From assembly GCA_963766735.1 (NCBI GenBank), contig CAVYBU010000008.1:1-64000 (forward strand): a DNA stretch of 64,000 nt, given 5' to 3'. Below are positions 1-16,290 of this stretch, one piece after another; within the stretch, counting starts at the first letter, position 1, and each line of letters starts with the position of its first letter. This DNA comes from an uncultured Chloroflexia bacterium (GTDB lineage: Bacteria; Chloroflexota; Limnocylindria; Limnocylindrales; CSP1-4). The notes beneath the pieces were generated by a model, which did not search any database, had not been told where the DNA came from, and saw only the letters and a list, made by a program, of their open reading frames with translations. The position numbers were made by a program, and so were the translations under genes.

Positions 1-20
1 AAATCCTCTCGCCCCGACCA
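1..20 (+). tRNA. 3' end of tRNA-Pro (partial; rest lies upstream of window); attL of the island array
   Basis: AAATCCTCTCGCCCCGACCA is the end of the T-loop, the T-stem 3' strand, acceptor strand CGCCCCG, discriminator A and CCA. G72/A73 is typical of tRNA-Pro. Anticodon not visible. Confidence 0.8.
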
Positions 21-1108
21 GATCGACCAATCGAGATTGATTGGTCCCCAGCCCCGAAGGCTGCATCCCATCCGTGGGCCTTCGCGCTGGCGGTCAGCGT
101 GAACGAGAAGTCGTTCGCCCCCATCACGTCGATCCTCTCGAACACGGCTTCCGCGATCGCGTGCCGCCCGGCGTCTGAGGTCTTCGCCCACAGGTTCGGC
201 AGCGACTCGAGGTACGCCCGCGCTTCCGCGGCGGTCGGGATGCGTGACGGGCGGACCACCGCTGCCTGTGCCTCAGCGTCGAGCCGCGCCATGGTGGCCT
301 CGAGCTTCCCCAGGTCGCGATCCTTCGCGAACCGCAGGGCCGCCTGGTCACGCTCTCTGGTGATGCGGGCTTGGGCCAGGACGTCGCCGTTGTCGGGCTC
401 CGGTCGCCTGGCGAGCGCCACGGTGCTGGCCTTGAGCGTCGACGAGACGGCCACGTGCTCGAACGCGAGGCCGATCGCGTCCTCGTACACCTCGACCTTG
501 TAGGACTCGCCCTTGACGCGGTGGTCGAGGTTCGTCTTCGCATTGCGCCGGTGGCGGCGCGGGGCAGCCGCCCGAAACGCCTCGCAGGCGTCCAGATGGC
601 GGTAGCGGCCGACGTGGCCGGTCAGGCGGCGGCCGCAGGCCGCGCAGGCCAGGAGCCCGGCGAGGCCGTACTGGCGGCGGTGGACCGAGCCGCGGTGCCT
701 CCGGCTGTAGCGGGCGCGCATCGCCTGGACGTGCTCCCAGGTGCCGACGTCGACGAGCGCGCCCAGGGCGGACGGCTCGCCGGTCCGGAGGCGGCCGGCG
801 TAGAAGGGGTTGGTCAGCACCTCCGCGACGTGCGTCGGCGCGAGGCCCGTGGCCTTCCCGACCTCCCGATCGGTTCGCCCGCCTGCCGCGAGCTCGTAGG
901 CGCGGCGGACGAGCACCATCGCCTCCTCGTCGACGGTGATGGTCCGGCCCTCCCGCACCGTGCCCAGGGGCGCTCGGTTGCCGCCGGGGACGCCGAGCCG
1001 CCGGCGCTTGGCGGCGTAGCCCTCCCGGATGCGGTGATGGACGAGAGCGATGAGCGGTGCCGGGTGGCCGGCCATGAACTTCGGCGAGCCGACCCAGTAG
1101 ATCGTCAC
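1..1108 (-). pseudogene. Large serine recombinase lacking the N-terminal catalytic domain, fused in frame to an amidase-like N-terminus; frame runs into the tRNA (stop predicted just outside window)
   Basis: Manual translation from GTG 1108: MTIYWVGSPKFMAGHPAPLIALVHH|RIREGYAAKRRR..GGNRAPLG..VLTNPFYAG (recombinase domain)..GLLACAACGRRL (Zn ribbon)..coiled coil..AKAHGWDAAF..SGRGERI. No resolvase catalytic-Ser domain. Absent from the ORF track because there is no stop in the window. Confidence 0.85.
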
Positions 1109-1332
1109 CTCACGCCCCGCCAGAGGGCCGAGGCCTCGAGCCCCAGGAGCGCGAGGATCGCGCCGAGCAGGGGCAGGAGGATGCCCGGGCTGATGTCGTA
1201 GTCGGGGACGGCGACGTCGAGGACGAGGAGGACGACCAGGACGATCGTGAGCGCCGCAGCCGCGCCGATCCGGGCCGAGGAGTAGACGTCGGCCCGGCGC
1301 TGGTCCGCGTCGTCACCCCGTTCATCGCCCAT
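1105..1332 (-). CDS. Small two-TM membrane protein, holin-like
   Basis: 75 aa with two hydrophobic stretches; GTGA overlap with the amidase-like start. Confidence 0.55.
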   Translation of the reverse strand: MGDERGDDADQRRADVYSSARIGAAAALTIVLVVLLVLDVAVPDYDISPGILLPLLGAILALLGLEASALWRGVR

Positions 1333-1447
1333 GCCGGCGCAGTCGGTCGATCCACGCATCGACGAGGAACGGCAGCACAAACCGGTCGAGGGCGCCGCCC
1401 ATGACCACGCCGGCGAGGAATGCCGCGACGAGCTCGATCCCGCTCAT
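1322..1447 (-). CDS. Small membrane peptide (41 aa), probable phage remnant
   Basis: MSGIELVAAFLAGVVMGGALDRFVLPFLVDAWIDRLRRHGR; overlaps both neighbours (ATGA at 1444-1447). Confidence 0.5.
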   Translation of the reverse strand: MSGIELVAAFLAGVVMGGALDRFVLPFLVDAWIDRLRRHGR

Positions 1448-2126
1448 AAGGTCGTCGCGGGGTTGACGGCGCGGACGTACCCGGTGGGGGGAACCGGGAG
1501 TCGACCTGGATCGGACCAGCGCGCCGTCATGCACCAAGGGTGCGGGCGGCGGGCCGCGGTTTCTAGTTGGCCGATTGGGCCATGTCGTCCGGGCTCGGGC
1601 AGGCGCGAGGAGAGGGTCCACAGGAGCTTCGCCGTCGTCACCGCTCCGGCCCCGGACCGCGCCGCTCGACCGCCGCAACCGCGCCTCGCTCGACAACAAC
1701 GAGACGGACGCAGGTGCGGCTCTCGGGATTGCACGTCCGCTCCGTGAAGGCCAACCTTCGACGCCACGAGCATCTCAGCCCTGGAATCGCCGTCGGCCGA
1801 GCAGCATCGAGAAGGAGTAGTTCTACTCCCGGCTGATGCCTCCGGCACGATCGCCGTGGTCGTCGACTCGATCGACGGGGCCCAGCTTCGACGCCCTTCC
1901 TTCGCGCGCCTCGGAGATCCCTGCCACGGTCAAGTCCGACTGAGCGAACCCTGCTGCATGCGCGCGGCACCATTCGGGGACGCCAGTTCAGCCAGTGCCG
2001 CCGGTCGTCGTCATGGTGGCGCGACGTCGTGGTCCGACCGGAGGGCGTTGTCCGGGCCATGCCGCCGGCGATCAGTACCGGCGCGGGCTGGGCCGTGCCC
2101 TTGGTGGCGCGCTACCCGAAGCGACG

Positions 2127-3020
2127 TCAGCCCGATCGGGCCGGGCGCGTCGAGCGGAGCTGTTCCACGAGCGCCCGGGCGTGCTCCTCGACCGCCGGCG
2201 CGAACGACGTGCCGAGAGCGGCGCACGTCCGCCGTGAGACCTCCCCGAAGAGGTCCATCGTCGTCGAGAGCGCGGCCCAGACCTCGTCTTCGTCATAGCG
2301 GGCGAACGACGTCCGCAGGCCCTCAAGGGACACCGGATCCGCCCATTCCTCGAAGAACCGGCCCCGGAACCACGGGTCGCGACCCGCGGCGGCCGCATCC
2401 CACTCCAGGAGCCGGCGCAGTAGCTCCTTCATGTGGACATCGCAGGCGAGCTTCGCCCACCACAGCTCGCCGCGGCGGAGATGCTTCGCCGTCCAGACGG
2501 CGTGGTACCAGAAGTCGGACGCAACCTGCTCGAAGGCGGCAGCATCCGGCAGGGTCGCCGCCTCGGCCGCGATCGTCGGAGTCGCGTCCATCAGCCGCGC
2601 GGCCACGCCGTCCTTGTCGAGCAGGACGCGGAACCCGCGACCGAGGGCGGCCTGAGCGGCCCGGGGATCGGAAGTGAGTAGGGTCTCGATCTCGTCGATG
2701 GCGAAGAACGCGAAGTCGACGTCCGCGCCACCGGCGAACAGCACGCGCCGCTCGGATCCGTGGCCGGCGGCGGTCGGCTCGAGGAACGTGATCCACGGGT
2801 CACCGATCGCTGCCACCCAGCCTGGGTCCTGCACGTAGCGGGAGGGCCCGTCGGTCAGGACGAGGACGTCGAGGTCCGCCCATTCGTCGGCGGGATGGTC
2901 CAGGCGCGCCCGCGACCCGATGACCAGGGCGGCGCGGATGTCGTCCTCCGCCGCCGCCCACGCAGCGAACCGCTCCGCGATGCGATCGTATTCCCGTGCG
3001 GCCCAGCCGGGTTCCGCCAT
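2127..3020 (-). CDS. Aminoglycoside 6-adenylyltransferase-like nucleotidyltransferase
   Basis: GSRAR..ADEWADLD motif; FWYHAVWTAKHLRRGELW; GRFFEEWAD. Confidence 0.8.
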   Translation of the reverse strand: MAEPGWAAREYDRIAERFAAWAAAEDDIRAALVIGSRARLDHPADEWADLDVLVLTDGPSRYVQDPGWVAAIGDPWITFLEPTAAGHGSERRVLFAGGADVDFAFFAIDEIETLLTSDPRAAQAALGRGFRVLLDKDGVAARLMDATPTIAAEAATLPDAAAFEQVASDFWYHAVWTAKHLRRGELWWAKLACDVHMKELLRRLLEWDAAAAGRDPWFRGRFFEEWADPVSLEGLRTSFARYDEDEVWAALSTTMDLFGEVSRRTCAALGTSFAPAVEEHARALVEQLRSTRPARSG

Positions 3021-3037
3021 CGGCAATCGCGTCCGTG

Positions 3038-4528
3038 TTACGGGACGGCTCGCCGGCGGGCGACCGCCGCCCAGACGACGAGGACCAGGAAGCCGCCGAG
3101 GCAGACCCAGCCCAGCCAGCGCCCGAACGCTGTGTAGAGCGTATCCACGTGGGCGGTGGGCACCTGGGCGATCATCGTCCGGTCCGTCGAGCGGAAGAAG
3201 TCGGTCTGGGCGAGCTCCCTCCCGTAGGGGTCAACGGCCATCGACAGGCCCAGCTCAGTCTGGCGCACCAGCGAGTACCCGTTCTCAACAGCGCGGAACA
3301 CGGCCATCTGGGTGTGGACCGGGTCGATCTCGAACCAGTCCGCACTGGGGACCAGGAGCAGCCCGGTGCCGTTCTGCCCGCTCTGCTGGATCACCGCCGG
3401 GTAATCGGCGTCCCAGCAGATCACGCCCGAGAGCACGCCAAACGGCGTGTTCGCGGTCTGGAGCGTTCCGTCGCCGACCACGGTGCCCTCGAAGATGGCA
3501 CCGCCGTACTTGACGTGTTCGATCACGATCGATCCAGCCGGATCGATCACCAGGAGCTTGTTGTCGACCGGCACCAGCGTGTCCTCGGTCCAGGTCCACA
3601 GTGGCACGGCCAGGTAGATCGCCTGTTCCCGGGCCAGGTCCTGGGCGCGAGCGGTGTAGGCAGCCTCGTCCGAGTCGAAGATCACGCCCGCGGTCTCGGG
3701 CCACACAACCACCTCGGCGCCGGCCTGCGCCTCGCGCGCGGTCGCGCCTGCAAAGGCATCCCAATGGGTCTGGAACAGCTGACGACGAGCCGCCGTATCG
3801 GACAGCTGTGCCATCGGTTCTTTCAGGGCATGGGTCGAATCGGCGTTGATCCCCGCCACACGGATCGTGTCACCCGACGAGGCGGGAATCAGGCGCAGGA
3901 AGCCGAAGATGAAGACGAGCGCGAGCACCGTGCCGAAGACGGTCAGTCCCCGCCGGACCCCGGCACCGCGAACCCGGTTCTCCCAGGCCCAGTTGACGAC
4001 CGAGGCAAACCAGCCCATCAGGAAGGTGATCCCGATCATGCCGGTCACCGACGCGAGCTGCATGAGCGGCAGGTTCCCGTACTGGGTGAAGCCTGTCGCC
4101 GCCCAGGCACCGACCGGGTTGGCGTGGCCGTTAACGAATTCGATGGTCGTCGCCGCGAGCGGATAGACGAGCGTGCTCGGGAAGCCTCCGAGGCGGGGAC
4201 CGATGAGCCGGTCGGCGAGAAACGGCAGGCTCCACAGCAACCCGTACAGAACGGGGAGGGACACGACCAGTGGCAGGGGCCATCCCGACGACGTCCACAC
4301 GCTGCCGAAGCCGATGATGAAGGCCACAGCGAGGGCGATGAAGAGGAGGGCAAACCCCCGCCAGCCCCCATGGTCCCGCGCATAGCGCATCACCAGAACC
4401 GGCCCGATCCAGGCGGCGGGCGGAGCCAGCCAGTTCCCCATCGAGAACCCGATCAGCAGGGCTCCGGCAAGCAGGATCGCAAGGGAGGCGCCCCACCCGG
4501 ACACGCGGGCCGTCGCGGATGCAGTCAT
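3038..4528 (-). CDS. Membrane nitrilase-family protein, apolipoprotein N-acyltransferase-like
   Basis: Multi-TM N-half; WPE, K and ICWD catalytic motifs; RAVENG. Confidence 0.85.
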   Translation of the reverse strand: MTASATARVSGWGASLAILLAGALLIGFSMGNWLAPPAAWIGPVLVMRYARDHGGWRGFALLFIALAVAFIIGFGSVWTSSGWPLPLVVSLPVLYGLLWSLPFLADRLIGPRLGGFPSTLVYPLAATTIEFVNGHANPVGAWAATGFTQYGNLPLMQLASVTGMIGITFLMGWFASVVNWAWENRVRGAGVRRGLTVFGTVLALVFIFGFLRLIPASSGDTIRVAGINADSTHALKEPMAQLSDTAARRQLFQTHWDAFAGATAREAQAGAEVVVWPETAGVIFDSDEAAYTARAQDLAREQAIYLAVPLWTWTEDTLVPVDNKLLVIDPAGSIVIEHVKYGGAIFEGTVVGDGTLQTANTPFGVLSGVICWDADYPAVIQQSGQNGTGLLLVPSADWFEIDPVHTQMAVFRAVENGYSLVRQTELGLSMAVDPYGRELAQTDFFRSTDRTMIAQVPTAHVDTLYTAFGRWLGWVCLGGFLVLVVWAAVARRRAVP

Positions 4529-4598
4529 CGGTCGACCTCCTTCTGGGATATGCCCGGCATGGCCATGGATCGAGCGGCGCTGGCGACCCGCACCGGCC

Positions 4599-5120
4599 CT
4601 AGGCTCGAGTGCGTGACTCGGCCCAGGCTCGCCAGAGCACGATCAGGCCGATGACGATGATCGCGACGCCCCAGTAGTCGAGCAGGTTGACTGCCTGGCC
4701 CCCGATCAGCAGGGCAGCGCCGATCACGGCCAGGATGCCGCCCGGGATGATCGGCCACCAGTGGTGCCTGTCGACGTGCGCGATCGCGCCGATCACCCAG
4801 ATCGACACGAACCCGAGACCGAGGCCCAGGACCACGACGCCGCCGGTCTGCTCGTCCGTCGCCGCGAGGTTCTCCGAGGCGATGATCCCGGCGCCCAGAC
4901 CGGTCATGATCCCGCCCGGGACCAGGTAGCCGTACTGGCGCGTGAACACGAACGCCACCAGGAACCCCACCCCGATGAGCATGACGATCCAGCCACCCAT
5001 GTTGGCCGTGAGGTCAAACACCTGGGCGGCCAGCCCGACCACGCCGACCACGATCAGGATGACGGCGACAGCCATCCGGTCGCGCGAACTCGCGCCCACT
5101 TTCGGAGCCACTTCAGACAT
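4599..5120 (-). CDS. Hypothetical multi-pass membrane protein
   Basis: Hydrophobic ORF with repeated xPGGI motif; RBS GGAAGG. Confidence 0.7.
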   Translation of the reverse strand: MSEVAPKVGASSRDRMAVAVILIVVGVVGLAAQVFDLTANMGGWIVMLIGVGFLVAFVFTRQYGYLVPGGIMTGLGAGIIASENLAATDEQTGGVVVLGLGLGFVSIWVIGAIAHVDRHHWWPIIPGGILAVIGAALLIGGQAVNLLDYWGVAIIVIGLIVLWRAWAESRTRA

Positions 5121-5377
5121 CCCCTTGCCTCCTTCCCGCGCGCCGGGCGACCCACAGTCGACCCCGGGACGCGGCGGCTCCACTTGGTCAATGGACAAGC
5201 GGGTCAAAGATCCGGATAAGTGCCATTCAGCCCCCTGCGGATGATCCGCTTGGCCTGTGGGGCGAATCGGCGGCCACGGACAACGAGCCCCGCCGCAATC
5301 CATTCCGGCACGACGATCCGTGGTGTCGAACCCGGCGGCTCATGTCCCGTAGCGACACGACCGCGTCCAGTAGACCG

Positions 5378-5632
5378 CTACTCGTCCGCCTGCACTCCGC
5401 CCTCGGGCTCGGGCAGCCGCGGGGCCAGGATCCACACGAGCTGCGCCGTCGTCGTCACCCCCACCTTGGACCGGGCGTTCGCCAGGTGGTGCTTGACGGT
5501 CGAGTGCGACAGGCCGAGTCGATGGGCGGCCGCCTTCTCCGACCCGGCGACAAGGACCGCGGCCACGACGCCGACCTCGCGGTCCGTCGCGCGATTGGCG
5601 AATGCCCAAGTTCTCCGACCCGGTCGGGCCAC
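5378..5632 (-). CDS. LuxR/GerE-type small HTH protein, copy A (N-terminus replaced)
   Basis: ATDREVGVVAAVLVAGSEKAAAHRLGLSHSTVKHHLANARSKVGVTTTAQLVWIL. Confidence 0.75.
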   Translation of the reverse strand: MARPGRRTWAFANRATDREVGVVAAVLVAGSEKAAAHRLGLSHSTVKHHLANARSKVGVTTTAQLVWILAPRLPEPEGGVQADE

Positions 5633-5660
5633 CGGCTACCCGGTCAAGCATGAAGCCTGC

Positions 5661-5701
5661 GTGGCAAGCAAGTACTTGACAACTCGCCAAGTACTTGCCA
5701 C
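5661..5701 (+). promoter_or_regulatory. Promoter/operator with nested palindromes
   Basis: CAAGTACTTG at 5669-5678 and 5688-5697; outer IR GTGGCAAG/CTTGCCAC; TTGACA at 5676. Confidence 0.65.
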
Positions 5702-5737
5702 ACTGGCGCAATTACACCGCAGCAGAGGTTCAAGATC

Positions 5738-6214
5738 GTGACGAACGCAATGGATCCAGGTGAGGCCCGGGAGGCGCTCGCCGAGACGGAGCGGCGTAGA
5801 GAGCAGGTCATCGAAGGGACGCTCGTCCCGAGCTGGTACTGGTGGGTCGTGGGGATCCTGGCTGTGGGCCTGGGGGTCGGCGTGGACGCGCGCGACCCGG
5901 CGATCACCGGGGCCACCGCTGGCATCTTCGCGGTGGGTGTGTCGGTGCTCACCGTGTGGATCGCGTTCGGTGGCCGCCGCCACGTGAAGGTCCACGATCG
6001 GCTCCTTGGCGCACGCGGCGCCGGCCTCATCGTTGGCTTCGTGTGGCTCGTGGTTGGTGGCACCCTTGGGCTGGCGTTCGCCCTCCAGGCGGCGAGCGTT
6101 GGACCCGCGGGGACGCTCTCGACCATCGCCTGCGCGATCGCGCTCATCGTGGGAGGACCGGTGCTGATGCGGCGGCTGCGCGAGATGATGCGGCGTCAGA
6201 CGGAGGTGGGTTGA
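5738..6214 (+). CDS. Hypothetical four-TM membrane protein
   Basis: Hydrophobic ORF; TGATG-coupled to the downstream regulator. Confidence 0.75.
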   Translation: MTNAMDPGEAREALAETERRREQVIEGTLVPSWYWWVVGILAVGLGVGVDARDPAITGATAGIFAVGVSVLTVWIAFGGRRHVKVHDRLLGARGAGLIVGFVWLVVGGTLGLAFALQAASVGPAGTLSTIACAIALIVGGPVLMRRLREMMRRQTEVG

Positions 6215-6516
6215 TGGCCACGCCACGGTTCGACGAGCTGATCCATGCCCGGACCCGGCTCTCGATCGTCTCGCTGCTGGCCGCCTCGGACTGGGCTGAG
6301 TTCAGGTTCCTCCGCGAGTCCCTCGGCCTGTCCGACTCGGTCCTCTCGAAGCAGCTCACTCTGCTCGAGAAGGCCGGCTACGTGACGATCCGAAAGGCGT
6401 TCGTCGGCAAGCGACCCCGCACGTCGGTGAAGCTCAGTCAGGTCGGGCGTCTCGCGTTCGAGGGCCACGTCCTGATGCTCCAGGAGCTCGCCTCGCAGGG
6501 CGGGATCACGGGTTGA
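6214..6516 (+). CDS. Winged-HTH transcriptional regulator (ArsR/MarR-like)
   Basis: FDELIHARTRLSIVSLL..LGLSDSVLSKQLTLLEKAGYV..GKRPRT. Confidence 0.85.
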   Translation: MATPRFDELIHARTRLSIVSLLAASDWAEFRFLRESLGLSDSVLSKQLTLLEKAGYVTIRKAFVGKRPRTSVKLSQVGRLAFEGHVLMLQELASQGGITG

Positions 6517-6829
6517 AGTCCGGTGGGTCGGAACCACAATGACATGTGCGGGCCCCGACGTACCAGTCGCGGCGAGCCGACCGCTCGTCGTCCTTCCGGA
6601 CCGTCACCTCAGGCTCCGGCAGCCGCGGCGCCAGGATCCAGACGAGCTGCGCCGTCGTCGTCGCCCCCACCTTGGACCGGGCTTTCGCCAGGTGGTGCTT
6701 GACGGTCGAGTGCGACAGGCCGAGGCGGTGGGCGGCGGCCTTCTCCGACCCGGCGACCAGGACGGCGGCGACCACGCCGACCTCGCGGTCAGTGGCGCGT
6801 TCGACGTGGTGGCTCGACCGTCGCGTCAT
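6506..6829 (-). CDS. LuxR/GerE-type small HTH protein, copy B
   Basis: Same core as copy A; start overlaps the LSR-tail stop (ATGA 6826-6829). Confidence 0.8.
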   Translation of the reverse strand: MTRRSSHHVERATDREVGVVAAVLVAGSEKAAAHRLGLSHSTVKHHLAKARSKVGATTTAQLVWILAPRLPEPEVTVRKDDERSARRDWYVGARTCHCGSDPPDFNP

Positions 6830-7030
6830 GCGCTCCGCAGCCAGTCGAAGGGCTCCGGCGGCTCGGCGAGGCGCATCGTGACGGAGCTCGGAAGGTCGTT
6901 GGTGGCGGGGCTATCCCTCTCGCCCCGACCAGTCTTACGCACTTCCACCCTGAACTCGCCGGTCATTGCGGCTGCCCAGTCACGTGCCTCGGCTTCGACG
7001 CTCGGGTGGAGCCAGACCTCGTTCGGCCCA
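6826..7030 (-). pseudogene. LSR C-terminal remnant reading through att junction 1
   Basis: GPNEVWLHPSVEAEARDWAAAMTGEFRVEVRKTGRGER|DSPATNDL..FDWLRSA*, similar to the end of the 1-1108 LSR. Confidence 0.7.
6916..6932 (+). repeat. att core, copy of tRNA-Pro 3' end (junction 1)
   Basis: CCTCTCGCCCCGACCAG identical to 5-21. Confidence 0.9.
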
Positions 7031-8683: not shown

Positions 8684-8941
8684 TCAAGCAGACCGCTGCT
8701 CGTCCGTCCGAGTCCAGCCCTCTGGCTCGGGCAGCCGCTCCGCCAGGATCCACACCAACTGCGCCGTCGTCGCGGCGCCGACCTTCGACTGCGCGTTCGC
8801 CAGGTGGTGCTTGACGGTCGAGTGCGACAGCCCGAGTCGGTGGGCGGCCGCCTTCTCCGACCCGGCAACGAGGACCGCGGCGACCACGCCGACCTCGCGG
8901 TCAGTGGCGCGTTCGACGTGGTGGCTCGACCGTCGCGTCAT
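8684..8941 (-). CDS. LuxR/GerE-type small HTH protein, copy C
   Basis: Near-identical to copy B; ATGA overlap at 8938-8941. Confidence 0.8.
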   Translation of the reverse strand: MTRRSSHHVERATDREVGVVAAVLVAGSEKAAAHRLGLSHSTVKHHLANAQSKVGAATTAQLVWILAERLPEPEGWTRTDEQRSA

Positions 8942-9130
8942 GCGCTCCGCAGCCAGTCGAAGGGCTCCGGTGGCTCTGCGAGCCGCATCGCGATGGGAAG
9001 GTCGTTGGTGGCGGGGCTATCCCTCTCGCCCCGACCAGTCCTACGCACTTCCACCCTGAACTCGCCGGTCATTGCGGCTGCCCAGCCGCGAGCCTCGGCT
9101 TCGACGCTCGGGTGAAGGCAGACCTCGCTC
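8938..9130 (-). pseudogene. LSR C-terminal remnant reading through att junction 2
   Basis: EVCLHPSVEAEARGWAAAMTGEFRVEVRRTGRGER|DSPATNDLPIAMRLAEPPEPFDWLRSA*. Confidence 0.7.
9022..9038 (+). repeat. att core, copy of tRNA-Pro 3' end (junction 2)
   Basis: CCTCTCGCCCCGACCAG identical to 5-21. Confidence 0.9.
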
Positions 9131-9149
9131 CAACCGAGTCGGGTTGCCC

Positions 9150-9298
9150 CAATCGGTCGACGCGCCCTTCGTCGAGTTGCACGACCGACAGAGCACCGCG
9201 GTGCAGGCGATGTCGAACGGCGCGCCGCCAGCGGCGAGCGGGGTGACGTGATCAACGGTCAGGTCGGCGGCCGGGTGAGCAGAGCGTTGGTAGCCCGG
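9150..9298 (-). pseudogene. Phage-type HNH endonuclease C-terminal fragment
   Basis: Manual translation: PGYQRSAHPAADLTVDHVTPLAAGGAPFDIACTAVLCRSCNSTKG. Confidence 0.7.
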
Positions 9299-9322: not shown

Positions 9323-9778
9323 TCAGCGTCCCGTCGGCTCGATCCGGAAGACCGGGTGGTCGGCCGGGTCGGGCAGCAGCTCCATGGAGCGCCGGCAGTT
9401 GCAGGTGATCGTGCTCGCGTAGGTCTTCACGACCGCATCGCGCTCCGCGTCTTGGAGTTCGACCACGCGGACGTGCTCGAGGACACGGCGCGAGCGCAGG
9501 TCCGCCTCACCGGCCGCGCGCAGGTTCCGCGCCCAGTGCGTCTCGCCGCGGGGCGAGACGAGGTAGCGGGTCCCGTTCCACTCGAAGGGCGGATCCATCG
9601 GCACCTTGAGGCGCTTCCCGCTGTTCCGCCCCCGCACGATGAGGACGGTCTTCCGGCCGAGGGCGACCGTGATCGGGTTCAAGATCTTGTTCAGGAATGC
9701 GCTGGGACGGACGTACGCCCTCGGACGGCTCTCGGCCGCGCCGCGGGGGTTGGTCTCCAAGTGCCCGTCGATGGCCAT
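9323..9778 (-). CDS. Deazaflavin(F420)-dependent nitroreductase-family oxidoreductase
   Basis: LIVRGRNSGK..YLVSPRGETHWARNLRAAG..DHPVFRI; RBS GGAGG. Confidence 0.8.
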   Translation of the reverse strand: MAIDGHLETNPRGAAESRPRAYVRPSAFLNKILNPITVALGRKTVLIVRGRNSGKRLKVPMDPPFEWNGTRYLVSPRGETHWARNLRAAGEADLRSRRVLEHVRVVELQDAERDAVVKTYASTITCNCRRSMELLPDPADHPVFRIEPTGR

Positions 9779-9993
9779 CGCCGGCCTCCTTCCCCTCGTC
9801 CGGGAGAGGCACCTGGGGACGCGCGGGCGCCCGGTTCGAGCCGACAGTACGCCGGCGCCCCGCGCTGGTCGAGGGCCATCCTTCCCCGTCTGCTCGGCCC
9901 GCTTGAACGGGCGCGCGGGGCGTCCGTGGCCGTTCAGTTCCAAAGCCTCTTGGCAGCGACCTCGCGCCCCTGCGACGGTCTTTGGCGTGCACG

Positions 9994-10066
9994 CGAGAGG
10001 CTCTGACGCGCGGCCCACGCCACGGCCGGCGGGACCGCGCCGAGCCACTGGCGAGACCGACCCACT
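9994..10066 (+). promoter_or_regulatory. c-di-GMP-II-like riboswitch, degenerate copy
   Basis: GAGGCTCTGACGCGCGG..GGGACCGCGCCGAGCCACTGGCGAGACCGACCC; 30 bp identical to the copy at 11150; closing stem eroded. Confidence 0.5.
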
Positions 10067-10092
10067 GTGAGCGTCCCCGGGAGGCAGACGCG

Positions 10093-11088
10093 ATGCGTCA
10101 TCGAACCACGCTTGCTCTCATCGCCGGCGGGACGCTGGCCGCCGTCGCGGCTGGCGCGGTGGCGCGGTCCAGGCTGCGGGCGCGCCAGCTCGCGATCCCG
10201 GAACCCGTGACCGGCATCTTTCCGAACGGGATGGCGTACTTCCGGTGGGGCACCGGTCCGAAGACCCTGCTGCAGATCCCGGGAGGCCCCGGCAACACCG
10301 TCCCGTCCGGAGGGATGGCGCTGAGGATGGCCCGGTCCCAGTTCCGCGCGTTCGTCGAGGACGGGTACACGGTCTTCGGTGTCGCAAGGAAGCAGAACAT
10401 GCCGGTGGGCCACACGATGGCCGACATCGCCGACGACTACGCGGGGCTGATCGACGATCAGTTTGCTGGCAAGGTCGACCTGGTCGTCGGCGTCTCCTAC
10501 GGCGGGATGGTCGGGTTCTATCTCGGCGCCCGTCACCCCGATCGATTCGGGCATCTCGCCATCTGCGTCGCCGGCTACGAGGTGAGCGAGCGCGGCAAGG
10601 CCCTCGACTACGAGTTCGCCCGGCTGCAGAGCGAGGGCAGGAACGCCGACGCTGCTGCCCTGATGCTCCAAGATCTCGGCCCAGCTATCGGCGTGCCAGG
10701 CGTTACCCGGGTTCTCGGCGCGCTGATGGGCCGGTTCATGTTCGGCGCCACGCACCCGTACTTCGCGAGCGACGTCATGGTCGAGGCAGACGCTGAGGTG
10801 GCCTGTGATGCCCGGGACGTCCTGCCCGACATCTCCGTCCCCGTGCTGCTCGCGTGCGGCGACGAGGACATCTACTTCCCGAAGGACGTCTACGAGGAGA
10901 CCGCGCGGCTCATCCCCGACTGCACCCTCCGGATGTACGAGGGGGTCGGGCATGTGGGGACGGTCATGGACAAGCGGTTCCCGACGGACGTCCTCGACTT
11001 CGTCCGGCAGCGGCCCGCGACGCCGCGGGAGCGCGGCGAGGAGCAGCAGCCCATCCTCGGCGAGCTTGTCGGCACCGCCGCGGACTGA
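10093..11088 (+). CDS. Alpha/beta hydrolase with MRxRTTLAL leader
   Basis: GVSYGG nucleophile elbow; GDEDIYF; GVGH. Confidence 0.85.
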   Translation: MRHRTTLALIAGGTLAAVAAGAVARSRLRARQLAIPEPVTGIFPNGMAYFRWGTGPKTLLQIPGGPGNTVPSGGMALRMARSQFRAFVEDGYTVFGVARKQNMPVGHTMADIADDYAGLIDDQFAGKVDLVVGVSYGGMVGFYLGARHPDRFGHLAICVAGYEVSERGKALDYEFARLQSEGRNADAAALMLQDLGPAIGVPGVTRVLGALMGRFMFGATHPYFASDVMVEADAEVACDARDVLPDISVPVLLACGDEDIYFPKDVYEETARLIPDCTLRMYEGVGHVGTVMDKRFPTDVLDFVRQRPATPRERGEEQQPILGELVGTAAD

Positions 11089-11149
11089 CGGTCGAATGGG
11101 CTGTTGGCCTCTGGTCCGGAGTTTGTCCGGCGCCTAGGCTGTGCAGTTG

Positions 11150-11222
11150 GCGGGAGGCTCTGACGCGCGGTCCGAACACTGGCCGCCGGGACCGCGCCGA
11201 GCCACTGGCGAGACCGGCCCGC
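11150..11222 (+). promoter_or_regulatory. c-di-GMP-II-like riboswitch
   Basis: GCGGG/CCCGC closing stem, TGA..GAG kink-turn-like loop, GCGCGGTCC/GGACCGCGC stem, loop CGCC able to pseudoknot with GGCG in TGGCGAGACCG. Compared by eye with the class II consensus. Confidence 0.65.
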
Positions 11223-11249
11223 GCTGGGCGTCCTCGGGAGGTTCTCGCC

Positions 11250-12080
11250 ATGCGCCGCCGCACCACGCTCGCCCTCGTCGCCGGCGGCGCCGCGGCCGCC
11301 GCGGCAGGTGGCGCCATCGTCGGCGGCCGCCTCCGCAACTACCGACCGGAGCACGATGCGTCGAACCCGGAGGGTCGGACCATGGAAGCCGAGAGCTGGT
11401 ATCTCCAGAACAAGCCCAAGATCATGCGACAGGTGAGGTTCGCCCTCCCGCACTACAGACGGCACTTCGCCGAGGCCTACGGCAAGGAGGAAGGGGAGGC
11501 CATCGCCAGCGAGACGATGCAGCGCTTCGAGGTCCTGCTGCCCGACCTCCCATACATCGGTGGTGCTGAGAACCCCAACACGAGGTCGCTCTACTGGACG
11601 GGTGCCTGGCTGGCGATGTACCGCTCGCTCCAGGCGCGAGGGGCATCGGCCGAGGAGGCCGCCCGCCTCATCTACCTGGGGACAGCCGACTTCTACAACA
11701 GCTTCCCGATGCGCTGGCTTATGCGCTGGCAGGGCCGACGCTACCTCAGCCGGAAGCGTATGGATCGAGGGAGGCGTGCTGCCGCGATGAGCCAGCAGCG
11801 CCGCTACCCGGACGACTGGGTGTTCGAGGTCGTCGAGGGCGACGGGCAGGGCTTCGCGTTCGGGGTGGACTACACCGAGTGCGGGGTCGTGAAGTACCTC
11901 GCCCGTGAAGGTGCCCCGGAGCTTGCCCCGTACCTGTGCTGGGTCGACTACCCGCTGACCGCCGCGATGCACGTGAGGCTCGACCGAACCGAGACCCTCG
12001 CCCAGGGCGGTCAGCGGTGCGACTTCCGGATGAGCCGTGCAAAGCCCGTGCAGGTCGAGCCAGAGTTCCTGCACGCCTGA
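11250..12080 (+). CDS. L-2-amino-thiazoline-4-carboxylate hydrolase-like protein with MRRRTTLAL leader
   Basis: LPDLPYIGG..N; DYTECGVVKY..LCWVD..RTETLAQGGQRCDF. Confidence 0.75.
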   Translation: MRRRTTLALVAGGAAAAAAGGAIVGGRLRNYRPEHDASNPEGRTMEAESWYLQNKPKIMRQVRFALPHYRRHFAEAYGKEEGEAIASETMQRFEVLLPDLPYIGGAENPNTRSLYWTGAWLAMYRSLQARGASAEEAARLIYLGTADFYNSFPMRWLMRWQGRRYLSRKRMDRGRRAAAMSQQRRYPDDWVFEVVEGDGQGFAFGVDYTECGVVKYLAREGAPELAPYLCWVDYPLTAAMHVRLDRTETLAQGGQRCDFRMSRAKPVQVEPEFLHA

Positions 12081-12146
12081 GCGGATCACCGCCGCCTGAA
12101 GTCGACTTTCGGCGCGACCCGAAGCTGCAACGAGGAGGTACCCACC

Positions 12147-13157
12147 ATGCGCCGCCGCACCACGCTCACCCTCGTCGCCGGAGGGGCGCTTGCCGTCGCC
12201 GCGGTCGCGGCGTTCGCCTCCGGGGTCCTGATCATCCCCCTCGAGAAGCTCTCCAGCCGGCTGCGCGGGAGAGCACCCGAGGAATCCGCGCCGTCGGGCG
12301 CGGACTCGCAGTTCACCCTGTATGCGCCGGGTGGGCGCTGGGGCTTCATGTTCAACGGGCCGATCGGCCGGGCGTCCACGAGGTACATGCCGGTCATGCA
12401 GGCCGGGATGTACCAGCTCGTCGCCGACATCCTGGACCTGCAGCCGGAGGACGAGCTGCTCGACATCGGCTGCGGGCCCGGGGCGTTCCTCGCCAGCAAG
12501 GGGCGGCACGTTCGCCGGGTCGCCGGCATCGACGCCTCAGCGGTGATGATCCACGACGCGGAGCGGCGGCTGGCGGACCGGCTCGCCGCGGGCACCGCTC
12601 GGCTGGTGCTCGGCAGCGCCGACACGCTTCCCTTCGCGGACGGCGAGTTCTCGGCGGTCAGCATCATCTCTGCGCCGGCGGACCCGGCCGAGGTGTTCCG
12701 GGTCCTGCGCCCGGGCGGACGGGTCGTGGGCGTCTTCGAGATCGTCCCCGACCCGAGGACGCCCGATCCCGCCCGGACGACCGTCGGGCCGGGCTGGGAC
12801 GAGGAGGACACGCGACGGGTCCTCGAGGAGGCCGGGTTCGTCGTGGAGGCCGTCCGCTACAAGAGCTACTCGTTCCTCGGTGCGGAGCGGATCGTGAGCG
12901 CCCGCAAGCCGGCCCTGGTGCCGTCGAGCGCAGCCGCCGAGGGAGGGAGGCCGTTGCCGTCGGCTGACAGCGGAGGCCGAGCGGCGACCACGTGCGCGCG
13001 AATGACCAACCGCGCGCATGAGTCGAAAGGACGCGCAGGGTGGACAAGAGGATCCTCGTGGTCCATGCCGGACGGTATGGATCAACCGCAGAGGTTGCGG
13101 AGGTCGTGGCGGAGGAACTGCGCCGGTGTGGCGCGACGGTGGACACAACGCCCGTGA
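12147..13157 (+). CDS. Class I SAM-dependent methyltransferase with MRRRTTLTL leader (true end probably ~12967 after an indel)
   Basis: LLDIGCGPG, LPFADGEF, RVLRPGG; tail overlaps the next gene by >100 nt. Confidence 0.8.
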   Translation: MRRRTTLTLVAGGALAVAAVAAFASGVLIIPLEKLSSRLRGRAPEESAPSGADSQFTLYAPGGRWGFMFNGPIGRASTRYMPVMQAGMYQLVADILDLQPEDELLDIGCGPGAFLASKGRHVRRVAGIDASAVMIHDAERRLADRLAAGTARLVLGSADTLPFADGEFSAVSIISAPADPAEVFRVLRPGGRVVGVFEIVPDPRTPDPARTTVGPGWDEEDTRRVLEEAGFVVEAVRYKSYSFLGAERIVSARKPALVPSSAAAEGGRPLPSADSGGRAATTCARMTNRAHESKGRAGWTRGSSWSMPDGMDQPQRLRRSWRRNCAGVARRWTQRP

Positions 13158-13660
13158 CCGAAGGCATCGGGCTCGATGCCTACGATGCGATCGTCGTTGG
13201 GAGCGCCATCTACTGGGAGCACGTGCTGCCGGAGGTGGCAAGGTTCATCGAGCAGAACCATGAGGTCCTCGGACGCAAGCGCGTGGCCTGCTTCCTGCTC
13301 TGCATGGAGCTGACACGGGTCACCGACGGTCCTGGCCTAGGGGTCCCCGTCACCATCGACCCCCGCCTGGGGGCACCACCCCGCGTCCAGGGGAAGCTTG
13401 GCTACTGGGAGCGGACGCACCTCCTGTCGGCCATCCTCGGTCCGGTGCTGGACGCCGCGCCAGAGGTCCACCCGGTCAGCGTGGGTGTCTTCCGCGGCCG
13501 GGTCGACTACCGCAGGCTGCGCTTCGTGCACTTCGTGCTCCTGAAGTCGACCTGGCTGCTCTTCAGGAGAGCGCCCGAGGGGGACTTCCGGAACTGGGAG
13601 GCCATCCGCTCGTGGGCCTGGAGCCTGTGCCCGATGCTGCTTCCTGAGGAGTCCGCCTAG
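13040..13660 (+). CDS. Flavodoxin-domain protein (HemG-like)
   Basis: RYGSTAEVAE..YDAIVVGSAIY..GDFRNWEAIRSWA. Confidence 0.85.
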   Translation: MDKRILVVHAGRYGSTAEVAEVVAEELRRCGATVDTTPVTEGIGLDAYDAIVVGSAIYWEHVLPEVARFIEQNHEVLGRKRVACFLLCMELTRVTDGPGLGVPVTIDPRLGAPPRVQGKLGYWERTHLLSAILGPVLDAAPEVHPVSVGVFRGRVDYRRLRFVHFVLLKSTWLLFRRAPEGDFRNWEAIRSWAWSLCPMLLPEESA

Positions 13661-13779
13661 CGGGGCTCCAGACTCGGCACCTCGAGCCAGCCCTCAGCTC
13701 GTCGTGCAGCAGGTCGCACTAGACTCCGGACATCGTGGTCGGCCGTGCTGGGGCCGGCGCTTCAACTGGAGGCTGGGAC

Positions 13780-14170
13780 GTGGATCGACCGAAGGTGGTC
13801 AGGAAGGGCGAACTCCGCGGGGAGCCGACGCCGAACACCTGGCGTCACGCGCTTCGAGGCGTTCGCGGGCGAGCGCGTCTGGGTAGGGCGCATCGAGAAT
13901 GCCCCGCACCAGGAGTCGGACTGGCACGCCCATCCCGGTCACGACACGTATGGGCACGTCACCCGGGGCCGGTTCTTCGTGGACTTCGGCCCCGGCGGGT
14001 CCGAGCGGGTTGAGATCGAGCCAGGGGATTTCGTGTTGATCCCGAAGGGCGTCGTCCACCGCGAGGGCAACGCCGGCGCCGAGCCCAACGATGGTGTCAT
14101 CGTCCGCATCGGAGAGGGGCCGGTGACCGTCAATCTCGACGGCCCGGAGGCCCAGCTACGACACAAATCT
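13780..14170 (+). pseudogene. Cupin-domain protein, frameshifted near 13835, stop lost
   Basis: MDRPKVVRKGEL../PGVTRFEAF..SDWHAHPGHDTYGHV..PGDFVLIPKGVVHREGN. Confidence 0.65.
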
Positions 14171-14529
14171 GCGGTCAACCGGGGCCGGTTCGGCGTCACT
14201 CAGCCCGGCGCGTCCGAGCGGGTTGGATCGAGCAGGGGATGTCGTGTTCATCCGGGAGGGCCCGTGCCTACGCGAGGGTATCGGGCCGGCGACGGCTCCA
14301 GGATGGTCCATTCCCCGTTAACCAGCAGGGTCGGCGAGGGCGCCCGTTCGGCGACGGCGACGAGTTCTCCCAGGATCGCCTCAAGTTCCGCGAGGCGATC
14401 CGCGCGGGCGGGGTCTTCGTGCACCATTCCAGTGTGTCGCTTTCGATCGCGCCACGCCTGCGGTCGGGCCCGGGCCACGCGAACACGGGGTCGAGCTTCG
14501 GCCGATCCATCCGTCTCGGCCGCGCCCGC

Positions 14530-14637
14530 CGGCCCGGGCAGCCGAGGGCCGAGGATCCACGAGTTGCGCGGTCGTCCCTGAGCCCACCTTCGACCGCGCG
14601 TTCGCCAGATGGTGCTTCACCGTCGAGTGCGACGGCA
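14530..14637 (-). pseudogene. LuxR/GerE-type HTH, copy D (truncated, 2-bp deletion)
   Basis: SHSTVKHHLANARSKVGSGTTAQLV, then a shifted ILGPRLPGP. Confidence 0.75.
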
Positions 14638-14674
14638 GCGAGGGATGCTCATCCGAGGCGTTGCTTCGGTCGGT

Positions 14675-15313
14675 ATGCTCGATGCCGTGCGCAAGGCGAC
14701 GGCGGCGCTGTGGGTGGAACAGGACCGACATCCTGGCGATCGACACCGGTTGTTCCGGACGGTGGCCGATGCGGTCGATTGCGACACGGCCCTGGACCCG
14801 AGGCCATGGTGCGATGTCGCAGGGTCGTCCGAGTGGCCCTCGGTAACGTACGTCGACGCTGATCGGCGAGCGGCTCGGTTCTTCGACGACACCGATGGGG
14901 TGCGGGAGATCGTCGCCGCGCAATGCGCTTCGGCGATTGATCCCGAACTCCGATTCCTTCACGCCGACTACACCGACCCCCTGCCGCTCGAAGCCGAGAG
15001 CTTCGACGTGCTCGTGTCGCTCTTTGCCGGCCCGGTGTCGCGCCACTGCACGGGGTACCTGCGCGTCGGCGGGGTGCTACTGGCGAACCCGAGCCATGGT
15101 GATGTGGCCCTGGCGTCGATCGATCCTCGCTACGAGCTCGCTGGCATCATCCGCTCCCGAGACGGTGGATACCGCTACGCGAGCGGCGAGCTCGAGTCCT
15201 ACCTGGTCCCGAAGACGCCGGTCGAGGACATCGCCGAGCTGGTCGAACGCACGGGGCGTGGCATCGCATACACGAGGTCCGCGTACGCCTACCTCTTCCG
15301 CCGCGTGCGTTGA
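14675..15313 (+). CDS. Methyltransferase-like conserved hypothetical protein
   Basis: VTYVDADRRAARFF..ADYTDPL..FDVLVSLFAG..LRVGGVLLANPSHGD. Confidence 0.65.
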   Translation: MLDAVRKATAALWVEQDRHPGDRHRLFRTVADAVDCDTALDPRPWCDVAGSSEWPSVTYVDADRRAARFFDDTDGVREIVAAQCASAIDPELRFLHADYTDPLPLEAESFDVLVSLFAGPVSRHCTGYLRVGGVLLANPSHGDVALASIDPRYELAGIIRSRDGGYRYASGELESYLVPKTPVEDIAELVERTGRGIAYTRSAYAYLFRRVR

Positions 15314-15491
15314 CCGAGCCACCCCGATGGTCATCGCGGCACGCGGGCGCCCTGTCGCGCCGGTGTGAGCGCCCACGGACTGGGTGCCGCCCTCGCTGGC
15401 GTGGGCGGCGCGACAGGAGACGACGGTCCCCGCCGTGCGATCCCTCGCAGTCATCATCGGCGTGTCGCTGGGCGTACTGCCGTCGCTCGGG

Positions 15492-15755
15492 CTAGCGTCC
15501 GGCCGGGTCGTACTCGGTCACGAGGAATGCCGCAGTGCCCGCGGGCTCAGGCAGCCTCGGTGCCAGGATCCACACCAGCTGCGCGGTTGTGGTCGCGCCT
15601 ACCTTCGACCGCGCATTCGCCAGGTGGTGCTTGACGGTCGAGTGCGACAGCCCGAGCCAGTGTGCGGCCGCTTTCTCCGACCCGGCGACGAGGACCGCGG
15701 CCACGACGACCACCTCGCGGTCGGTGGCGCGTCCGGCGGGGCGGTGAGACGACCG
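15492..15755 (-). pseudogene. LuxR/GerE-type HTH, copy E (original start lost)
   Basis: RSSHRPAGRATDREVVVVAAVLVAGSEKAAAHWLGLSHSTVKHHLANARSKVG. Confidence 0.75.
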
Positions 15756-15759
15756 TCCC

Positions 15760-16151
15760 CCAATGATTGGCGTGACGCCTGGCGGCGGTTCGTCGCTCTC
15801 TGCGGGTTCGAGGTCACCTACTGCGAATCGATGGCGGATCAGGGCCTGGTCGAACCAATAACCGATACCGACGACTACGGCTGGCGCACGGGACCAGACC
15901 TGATCAGAGCGGCGGTAGAGATCGCCGCCGCCGCAGGCCCTTCAGACGCGATCGTTGTTACCGGTGCCGGTTGCCGCACTTCGCCAATCATCACAGAGGT
16001 CGAGCAGATCGCCGGGCGTCCCGTGATCGGCTCCGACACTGCCCTCTTCTGGTCACTGGCTCGAGCGGCCGGCCTGGGGCTCCGCCCGAACGCCCTGGGT
16101 GCTCTCACCCGCGGCGTGGCGTTGACCATCAGGAAGCTGAGCGATCGCTGA
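15760..16151 (+). pseudogene. Maleate isomerase / Asp-Glu racemase family, C-terminal fragment
   Basis: DAIVVTGAGCRT..IEVEQIAGRPVIGSDTALFW-like region; no N-terminal half. Confidence 0.6.
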
Positions 16152-16168
16152 GTTAGGGAGGGGCTACC

Positions 16169-16184
16169 CCTCTCGCCCCGACCA
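16169..16184 (+). repeat. att core, copy of tRNA-Pro 3' end (junction 3)
   Basis: CCTCTCGCCCCGACCA identical to 5-20; preceded by GGGGCTA as at junctions 1 and 2. Confidence 0.88.
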
Positions 16185-16290
16185 CTCCCACGCACTGCCA
16201 CCTTGAGCTCGCCGGTCATTGCGGCTGTCCAGCCGCGTGCCCAGGCTTCGACGCTCCGGTGGAGCCAGCCCTCGTTCACCGAGTCAGGTT
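16185..16290 (-). pseudogene. LSR C-terminal remnant at junction 3
   Basis: NEGWLHRSVEAWARGWTAAMTGELKVAVRGSGRGER. Confidence 0.7.

Follow-up and report, generated by a model that had tools for sequence, protein, structure and literature searches.

Composite staphylococcal cassette chromosome (SCC) islands, as well as pseudo-SCC elements that lack ccr genes, are well known. This text deals with a tandem array of islands in an uncultured Chloroflexia bacterium of the order Limnocylindrales, namely with a 64,000-nucleotide stretch (the window) that forms the first 64 kb of a 384-kb contig (C8; GenBank CAVYBU010000008.1), base 1 being the contig start, and with the units that large serine recombinases (LSRs) appear to have inserted there at a tRNA-Pro gene. 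The closest described systems include the serine-recombinase islands stacked in tandem at the 3′ end of ssrA in Dehalococcoides, of which 15 of 31 are without an integration module and have been proposed to be mobilisable in cis (PMC3146451). The role of CcrB is summarised in the same source. A three-step scheme of accretion has been set out for cis-mobilisable elements (CIMEs): an element integrates, it decays to a form that keeps attL and attR without the integrase, and a newcomer integrates beside it, the resulting tandem being able to excise in parts or as a whole (Pavlovic 2004; Bellanger 2011; reviewed in PMC5704250). In the sections used here of a 2015 tRNA-island reference, tandems of three or more number 4 among 3919 islands, and serine recombinases were not known to target tRNA genes (PMC4383910). 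A more recent island resource, from 2025, requires an integrase gene and drops islands of less than 2 kb; because of these two demands, units such as those described below would be missed (PMC12424338).

The region is very probably the tRNA-distal part of a tandem array built by phage-type LSRs, whose bacterial attachment site (attB) is the 3′ end of tRNA-Pro(CGG). The array is marked by a 16-nt core, CCTCTCGCCCCGACCA, found exactly and on the + strand at 5-20, 6916-6931, 9022-9037 and 16169-16184. Shuffled versions of the window contain 0.25 matches on average, and none of 100 reached five; the fifth match, at 16380, has two mismatches and is without arms. The units between cores measure 6911, 2106 and 7147 nt, and a fourth is open-ended. 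These exact matches agree with an earlier note on the stretch, made from its letters, which had given the same four core starts and unit sizes. The core comprises the 3′ strand of the T-stem, the 3′ strand of the acceptor stem, the discriminator base and the CCA of tRNA-Pro(CGG) of the metagenome-assembled genome (MAG) to which the window belongs (35 contigs, 3.6 Mb, 94% complete, contamination 4.2%). The earlier note had located the units at tRNA-Pro, and this holds for the target, now specified as tRNA-Pro(CGG), but not for the gene itself: ARAGORN found no tRNA in the window, Rfam gave no tRNA-like match at the junctions, and the genuine gene stands on another contig (C3, 380099-380175), 9.4 kb from the contig end, where it is followed by a fourth copy of the X-type stub and right arm that are found at the cores of the window. 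More junctions are present in the MAG on contigs C19 and C26 and, with one core mismatch, on C9 and C24. Some of these are alternative haplotypes (C24 and C9 are 98% alike, C26 and C19 96%, and C26 and C8:17704-18811 99.5%). One haplotype has another junction and two membrane-protein genes in place of the stretch left of 17704.

The recombinase is recognised by what abuts the core. On the - strand the core encodes GRGER, and the corresponding frame at core 1 stays open over 369 codons (ORF 2-1108). Residues 26-369 of this frame match LSRs of relatives at up to 95%, and the LSR part corresponds to residues 155-498 of full-length LSRs at 81-83% (tblastn; 81% for an LSR of 494 aa). To judge from its residues, the fragment carries an LTNPFY recombinase-domain motif, a Cys-rich motif (CAACGRRL...H..AC) and a probable charged helical stretch; it matches PF07508 weakly (17.8 bits, below the cut-off of 21.1; 22.6 bits with neighbours in frame). 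At the other three cores the LSR is reduced to stubs (6916-7029, 9022-9138 and 16169-16276), which, like the stub behind the tRNA gene on C3, align to LSR residues 604-641, the three of the window with 58-74% identity. The matching tail of the full-length LSR is EVWLYPTVEAQARGWAAAMEGEFRVESTNGRGERI, and by this alignment the stubs are real LSR tails. The earlier note had described an LSR stub of ~100 bp at the junctions, which is correct for cores 2-4 (~110 nt) but not for core 1, with its large fragment. The absence of a catalytically complete integrase, previously stated for the window, extends to the whole MAG: PF00239 has no match in it, and PF07508 only the one fragment of the window.

Full-length LSRs of the same kind, for which the earlier note had proposed a search, do exist in relatives, where both tail types occur next to tRNA-Pro. 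This bears out the reading of the repeats as LSR attachment junctions stacked at that gene. The 494-aa LSR of locus L047, beside tRNA-Pro, matches PF00239 (4.9e-12, covering the RESTAGQ serine motif) and phrog_95 'integrase' (1.4e-38), and the LSR of L068 matches both PF00239 and PF07508 (27.5 bits); among full-length relatives the domain matches are 4.9e-12 and 1.6e-9 for PF00239 and 3.9e-6 for PF07508. A PDB sequence search with one full-length relative gave a marginal match only, to a conjugative-transposon recombinase (E 0.048). Of 26 LSR loci examined in named MAGs, eight end at a genuine tRNA-Pro, the gene reading GRGERI*. The loci belong to Chloroflexota, mostly to Candidatus Limnocylindrales and CSP1-4-type MAGs.

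The same LSRs are found in phages. With an alignment of seven full-length LSRs as query, 25 IMG/VR contigs with relatives were obtained, of which 24 were analysed; a scan of viral contigs with the L047 protein alone gave nothing. The exact core stands at the 3′ end of the LSR gene in 14 of the 24, two of them being tRNA junctions and the other 12 having a non-tRNA left arm. In L106, LSR, core and arm are flanked by Bet-like and RusA-like genes to one side and, to the other, by the genes of the small and large terminase (phrog_83, 1.9e-18; phrog_9, 2.5e-76), and this is a phage attachment site (attP) inside the 3′ end of an integrase gene. The same contig has a tRNA-Met gene (7879-7953) ~430 nt past the core. 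Regarding the point of crossover, a dyad centre between core bases 1 and 2 is the best of ~88 possible centres in 8 of the 12 viral attP sites, and these eight come from at least four arm families. It also scores highest in junctions that combine an A-type left arm with a Y2-type right arm, where 16-17 of 26 positions match and the outer motifs AAGGTCG and CGACCTT are each 17 nt from the centre. By its symmetry, the sequence thus resembles the imperfectly symmetric attP of ~50 bp around a 2-bp crossover that is a feature of LSRs. Starting at the anticodon loop, the tRNA is imitated by the common left arm, which has ~6 extra bases between GGTCGG and AGGTT. The outer motif of an LSR attP half-site is reportedly ~5 bp further out than that of attB (Rutherford and Van Duyne), with which this arm agrees. 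The crossover would then fall at the CC that opens the core, so that identity begins exactly there and the tRNA with the core stays a usable attB whatever follows.

According to these features, the array may have been formed as follows. In the free element, the LSR gene reads into attP, its last codons (...GRGER) being the 16-nt core, past which comes a short left arm that mimics the T-arm region of the tRNA with ~6 extra bases; in the integrated form, the full-length LSR gene ends as ...GRGERI* within the tRNA. The attP halves would mirror each other around the CC at core bases 1 and 2, and an exchange at that point would restore the tRNA with DNA of the element, leaving the former 3′ end at the element's other side. 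The half-sites of attB lie almost wholly within the tRNA, and consequently the site is predicted to be regenerated each time. Newcomers would insert beside the tRNA and older elements would be shifted outward, where they probably decay: LSR genes would be eroded from their 5′ ends, junctions deleted and units merged. Units that keep both arms may serve as substrates in the manner of CIMEs.

Arrays of the same type are widespread in the genus. The exact core is found in 60 of 70 genomes, with at least three cores in 46, one in 11 and none in 10, and the highest counts per genome are 26, 19, 14, 13 and 12. In all seven fetched arrays that include the tRNA, this gene comes first and all cores are oriented with it. 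Eleven arrays provided 89 junctions (at most one core mismatch; LSR remnants sought at E 1e-5 with eight queries), at which the LSR is full-length in 4, a C-terminal fragment of 18-368 aa in 22 and without detectable remnant in 63. Unit length, for 96 units, varies from 3 nt to 24 kb around a median of ~2.4 kb, and 47 units measure 0.5-2.5 kb. Arrays of at least 14 junctions occur on a single contig, and a genome contains up to 26. No unoccupied tRNA-Pro site was found, since 10 of 10 junctions from genomes with one or two cores led into element-type arms. Intact LSRs are present in 1-2 of 8 tRNA-proximal and 3 of 81 distal units, which are too few cases and were left unused. A 21-kb tRNA-proximal unit (G060) was considered as an intact prophage and rejected, as no capsid or terminase was found among the genes scanned and its LSR is split.

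Islands made by tyrosine integrases are classically recognised by a block of identity, here of 16 nt, with the 3′ end of a tRNA gene (PMC4383910), and the serine recombinase genes might accordingly be passengers of such islands. The MAG itself has a tyrosine recombinase gene that directly adjoins tRNA-Pro(GGG) (C2:350185-350913), so that both integrase superfamilies each use a tRNA-Pro gene in one genome. We consider this origin of the array highly improbable. None of 26 matches to the tyrosine recombinase profile PF00589 lies in five arrays, and there is none in the window or on the island contigs of the MAG, the LSR genes abut the core in a fixed frame both in genomes and in phage contigs, and the dyad symmetry of ~56 bp around the core edge fits LSR sites. 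It is equally hard to believe that the repeats were collapsed or chimerically joined in a strain-mixed MAG. The window does begin at a contig break inside a repeat, and two haplotypes are present here in a MAG with 4.2% contamination; nonetheless, cores 2-4 lie inside the 384-kb contig with unique sequence on both sides, core 4 is crossed by a contig of a public run, and the same architecture occurs on contigs of 0.6-4.2 Mb in ten other genomes. Misassembly, which had been named as a possible refutation, is thus contradicted by the long contigs of other genomes.

Whether units without an integrase move is a separate matter, and for it the evidence comes from relatives, not from this window. 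Among the units compared, eight pairs are homologous over at least 70% of both members. Their upstream neighbours, comparable in seven pairs, show no match in six and a coverage of 10-18% in one; the downstream neighbours, comparable in three, show no match in two and 2-6% in one. Complete units of 0.8-1.9 kb are met again, with identical boundaries, in two or three genomes, and a Fic unit and a VapBC unit are in opposite order in two genomes. In one array (G063), a unit of 846 nt is present twice, 12 kb apart, with 868 of 878 bases identical from core to core and unrelated flanks; the duplicated unit has no LSR remnant, and of LSR sequence the 77 kb fetched contain no more than fragments. Left arms are discrete, with an identity of 0.5-0.9 within 25-60 nt of the core and a background of ~0.3 beyond, although the arm classes were picked by pattern and only the drop to background is informative. 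Right arms are uncorrelated with the left arms of the same junctions. Small units carry, among others, Fic, AAA_14/DUF4143, Phd-PIN, PIN_3 and YoeB/ParE and, by sequence reading only, AbiE-like pairs, a glycosidase-like protein and an SRPBCC protein. The recurrence of integrase-less units and the core-to-core duplicate make mobilisation in trans plausible. In relatives, units of this kind have been moved or copied at the cores, probably by LSRs acting in trans, for which the chances look about balanced in the case of any given unit.

Two further accounts of these units can be weighed against the same data. In the first, each unit brought an LSR that it lost afterwards, a unit without integrase stays where it is from then on, and shared units reflect independent arrivals followed by parallel deletion. 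The LSR fragments of 18-368 aa, always C-terminal, are in line with it, and so are the vanished junctions and fusion scar of the window, the lack of a catalytic LSR in the MAG and the cargo of unit 2, which is unique to this genome among 70. On the contrary, the 846-nt duplicate with its unrelated flanks and no LSR remnant does not fit, parallel deletions to the same limits in two or three genomes are unlikely for units of 0.8-1.9 kb, and the short left arms are conserved while the sequence past them is at background identity. This account is possible, but we rather doubt it. The second is an active system like that of integrons, in which the LSRs of visiting phages routinely capture, shuffle and excise modules of one or two genes by means of short sites (a left arm of 22-60 nt plus the core), making the array a reservoir of toxin-antitoxin and accessory genes. 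In its favour can be cited the small size of the units, their cargo with Fic, AAA_14/DUF4143, Phd-PIN, YoeB/ParE and AbiE-like pairs, the permuted order and the duplicate, the discrete left arms, and the depth over arm, HTH and LSR-fragment sequence at ~10-40x that of cargo in two metagenomes. It is opposed by the lack of a resident integrase and of a common promoter in the array, the weak orientation bias, the unassigned state of most right arms, junction folding that differs little from shuffles (z -0.4, -2.3, +0.3, -0.7) and the units of the window, which show decay and not turnover. As a description of the array at present it is likewise a minority possibility.

Public sequencing runs, all of them as Logan contigs, contain no more than 0.36 of the words sampled from 6501-16400; low depth in these runs is not evidence of absence. 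Parts of the region are covered as short contigs by four runs from four studies, one contig crossing core 4. In two runs, bins with arm, helix-turn-helix (HTH) gene, LSR-fragment and riboswitch sequence have ~10-40x the depth of cargo bins. Several Logan joints over 1-20000, including skips, have short sides of 21-39 nt and fit the junctions of other strains as well as they fit circles, and these were not used; a joint 18811->5404, from one run, matches the C26 haplotype.

Several observations speak against an array built and rearranged by LSRs, or leave room beside it. Most junctions (63 of 89) have no LSR remnant, and most right arms could belong to something else; LSR-less right arms that resemble LSR-type arms over 30 nt are 18 of 82 (control 0 of 81). 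The X-type stubs are all of ~36-40 aa, a uniformity more easily understood if one old stub was copied than if each had been truncated independently and at random. Single-site dyad scores of 14-17 of 28 are barely above a null of the best of all centres (mean 13.9, SD 1.2), so that what counts for the dyad is the repeated appearance of a single centre, with five of the eight sites belonging to one arm family. The cargo orientation is mildly biased (29 units mostly +, 13 mostly - and 5 neither, of 47). An LSR could sit on unassembled DNA, the MAG being 94% complete. It has two haplotypes here and breaks at repeats, leaving the order of C3, C8, C9/C24 and C19/C26 unfixed, and the C19 junction lies 2 kb from tRNA-Arg, beside housekeeping-type genes. 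Finally, no recombination was observed: the Logan joints are ambiguous, and 6766->2 (two runs) fits either the junction of a relative or a circle.

The C19 junction deserves a description of its own. It is of A type (HTH gene, left arm and core; C19:126901-129998, and also on C26) and lies downstream of tRNA-Arg(CCG). A tRNA-Arg(CCG) call is also present within the array of a relative (G068), and in a viral contig (L126) a related LSR ends beside tRNA-Arg. A piece of the array may have been relocated, or tRNA-Arg may be the target of a sister clade of LSRs.

In the window, the junctions share the layout that the earlier note had described (HTH gene, arm, core and LSR stub, with the left arm replaced at one junction), now supported by nucleotide repeats, PF00196 and the alignment of the LSR tails. 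The left arm and HTH gene form a 300-nt repeat (6575-6874 and 8687-8986, 88% alike), and a 135-nt repeat spans the core (6890-7024, with 8996-9130 at 95% and 16143-16277 at 81%); the left arm of junction 4 is short and differs from those of junctions 2 and 3. Left of core 1 stands AAAT, which matches the end of the tRNA T-loop and resembles no P-left arm seen in this genome. The HTH genes, on the - strand, are of GerE/LuxR type (PF00196, E 1e-6 to 2e-5). At A-type junctions, the LSR frame continues for 27-29 codons after GRGER and stops in a TGA that shares bases with the start codon ATG of the HTH gene (ATGA at 6826-6829 and 8938-8941), which would make the two genes one coupled unit only in the attP or junction form. 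In relatives, an HTH gene accompanies only A- and D-type arms and is not, as had been supposed, a general feature of the cassettes. Paralogues away from cores are found at 5372-5617 and 15537-15755, within the genes 5372-5632 and 15492-15755, and as fragments at 14509-14632 and 1591-1662, making six HTH genes or fragments for three internal junctions; we read the gene at 5372-5632 as the right end of an older unit whose junction has vanished. An HTH-family-like fragment is also borne by a 244-nt insertion (19698-19940) relative to the closest relative. No promoter or terminator was found in a scan of 6400-9400.

Decay, not turnover, is what the window shows, and its units look like decaying remnants, since HTH genes and fragments outnumber the internal junctions, coding quality is low in 13.7-16.2 kb and the cargo of unit 2 is unique. 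The frame at core 1 points to the same process: its fusion to the start of an amidase gene is a deletion scar that joined the lysis cassette to an LSR without the catalytic domain. The amidase gene is intact on C3 (PF01510, E 1.1e-7), where it adjoins a holin-like gene; the 335-aa protein on C3 has no PHROG match, and its label 'endolysin' is supported by Pfam Amidase_2. An IS110-family transposase gene (PF01548 and PF02371; C3:385106-386400) lies within the remnant of the lysis cassette on C3, and the paralogous stretch 1029-1584 of the window is without it. Units 2 and 3 have no recombinase domain and, by sequence, exact cores with recognisable right and left arms at both ends. The array is probably frozen in this organism unless an incoming element brings the enzyme, because no catalytic LSR domain was found in a 94%-complete MAG. 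The proposal of the earlier note that these are non-autonomous cassettes moved in trans thus draws its support from relatives (recurring units, the core-to-core duplicate and discrete left arms), while the units of the window itself look like remnants. Relatives also differ in cargo and order, as that note had required: the closest one shares 18944-22040 at 92-95% identity and has upstream of it five other junctions and other cargo, which indicates that the core content has changed since the lineages split. No further junction was found in the window beyond 16.3 kb, and synteny across the genus resumes near 28.6 kb.

Table 1. Junctions, recombinase remnants and cargo of the array in the window (positions of contig C8; LSR, large serine recombinase; HTH, helix-turn-helix).
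Feature	Position	Strand	Basis or remark
Core 1 with AAAT (last 20 nt of tRNA-Pro-like 3′ end)	1..20	+	reads as attL-type junction: tRNA side and Y1 arm
Y1-type LSR, C-terminal 344 residues without catalytic domain	2..1033	-	tail ...GRGER across the core
First 27 codons of Amidase_2 endolysin gene	1028..1108	-	in-frame fusion to LSR fragment; 93% to C3:384470-384550
Small lysis-cluster remnant gene	1105..1380	-	homologues adjoin amidase gene on C3 and C9; no family match
Unit 1 cargo	2127..5303	-	Adenyl_transf (PF04439); apolipoprotein N-acyltransferase-like (PF00795 and PF20154); 234-aa gene without family match
HTH paralogue without adjoining junction	5372..5632	-	LuxR/GerE
158-aa gene without family match, then HTH_34 winged-helix regulator (6217-6516)	5738..6516	+	
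Junction 2 HTH gene	6506..6829	-	LuxR/GerE
Junction 2 A-type left arm (P-left)	6830..6915	+	arm comparison
Core 2	6916..6931	+	exact match
Junction 2 X-type LSR tail stub, ~37 aa	6932..7029	-	74% to residues 605-641 of L068 LSR
Unit 2 cargo, 461-aa protein	7163..8548	+	hydrophobic N-terminal stretch; no family match
Junction 3 HTH gene	8684..8941	-	LuxR/GerE
Junction 3 A-type left arm	8942..9021	+	nucleotide repeat
Core 3	9022..9037	+	exact match
Junction 3 X-type stub	9038..9298	-	LSR-derived ~38 aa to 9138; similarity to C3 post-tRNA sequence to 9298 (92%)
Unit 3 cargo	9323..14581	+	alpha/beta hydrolase, ATC_hydrolase, methyltransferase, flavodoxin, cupin; one unassigned - strand gene; two c-di-GMP-II-GAG riboswitches
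HTH paralogue fragment, frameshifted	14509..14632	-	paralogue search; marks vanished junction
HTH paralogue 410 nt left of core 4, without adjacent A-type arm	15492..15755	-	
Junction 4 D-type left arm	16135..16168	+	same short arm in four other genomes
Core 4	16169..16184	+	exact match; contig from independent public run covers 16131-16940
Junction 4 X-type stub, ~36 aa	16185..16276	-	58% to L068 LSR, E 6.7e-4; nucleotide similarity
Fourth unit and remaining variable region	16277..28600	.	SRPBCC, DUF4260 and adenylate-cyclase-domain genes

Regarding the cargo, the gene at 2127-3026 (-) in unit 1 codes for 299 aa and belongs to the streptomycin adenylyltransferase family (PF04439, E 1.5e-38); beside it lies the apolipoprotein N-acyltransferase-like gene. 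For the unit 2 protein, the 69 other genus genomes contain nothing close, the best match being of 38% identity over part of its length. In unit 3, a repeat family was reported at the riboswitches because two c-di-GMP-II-GAG aptamers (RF03169) are present, at 9987-10070 and 11144-11228 (+), with 59.6 and 73.9 bits, upstream of the hydrolase genes; ~20 riboswitch-like stretches exist elsewhere in the genome.

The architecture as such is not new. The earlier note knew of no description of it, a statement that does not stand given the Dehalococcoides islands (PMC3146451) and the accretion model (PMC5704250). What the locus represents is a version of the tandem-island and cis-mobilisable architecture that targets a tRNA and is borne by phage LSRs, seen here in a late state; at genus level, it is distinguished by unusually long arrays of unusually small units. 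By title or abstract, no prior description of serine integrases at tRNA genes or of Limnocylindrales islands was found. Like the array described here, the Dehalococcoides islands belong to the Chloroflexota and lie in tandem downstream of a small stable-RNA gene, with more than a dozen repeats within 100 kb; each is bounded by a direct repeat of the 3′ end of the gene (20 bp there, 16 here), and a CcrB-like serine recombinase gene of ~540 aa adjoins attL on the reverse strand (PMC3146451), an arrangement of LSR gene and attL that is also present here. Unlike the present array, the target there is tmRNA and not tRNA-Pro(CGG), and the published account, in its relevant part, has no duplicate islands within a strain, whereas one relative here has a duplicate (PMC3146451). 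In addition, units here go down to 0.8 kb and the LSR frame runs through the core. The integration module of Dehalococcoides has six genes and includes a second small serine recombinase, DsiA (PMC3146451); no second PF00239 gene was found among the scanned proteins of the fetched elements, no search for the DsiA module having been made.

With the CIME scheme the array shares the same three-step history; the described cases, however, are integrative and conjugative or integrative and mobilisable elements with tyrosine integrases, in streptococci, and have two or three members, in contrast to 10-26 here (PMC5704250). With the tRNA islands found by Islander and TIGER it shares the copy of the tRNA 3′ end that restores the gene and the displaced fragment that marks the far end (PMC4383910, PMC12424338), but those islands have tyrosine integrases (PMC4383910), of which none was found inside these arrays (PF00589). 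The locus is a clear case of a phage LSR clade that targets a tRNA gene with attP in its own 3′ end, of which the 2015 reference, in the part cited, knew none (PMC4383910), and it extends the picture drawn from Dehalococcoides and from CIMEs to another Chloroflexota lineage, with units down to single toxin-antitoxin pairs. Finders that need an integrase and a minimum size (PMC12424338) would miss such arrays, so that for these bacteria, common in soil and sediment, the description of the accessory genome is probably incomplete. From a practical point of view, the predicted attB, attP and crossover are directly testable in vitro, and tRNA-targeting LSRs with defined short sites could serve genome engineering.

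SCC and SCCmec elements are similar in that LSRs insert them at the 3′ terminus of a single conserved gene, whose site is restored; they, too, stack in tandem, and those that lack a recombinase but are flanked by the repeats can be moved in trans. They differ in their target, rlmH (orfX), in their recombinases (CcrA/CcrB or CcrC), in their short stacks, in not being phage-borne and in their Firmicute host. Integrons and super-integrons resemble the array as ordered small modules, mostly of one function, between sites, with toxin-antitoxin genes common and entry expected at one end. Differences from them are the lack of IntI, attI and Pc, a recombinase of another superfamily that is not resident, and larger units with their own signals. 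In this sense, PF00589 gave no integron IntI in the window, the island contigs or the arrays of five relatives, and attC-like folding of the junctions was no better than that of shuffles in three of the four tested (z -0.36, -2.28, +0.28, -0.70). Tentatively, and with more doubt than conviction, tRNA-Pro(CGG) may be seen as a recombinase-less cassette platform of the genus, at which the LSRs of temperate phages capture, copy and reorder modules of 0.8-2 kb, entry being always beside the tRNA. If this were true, the platform would be a functional analogue of the integron based on the double-strand chemistry of serine recombinases, with the enzyme supplied by visitors.

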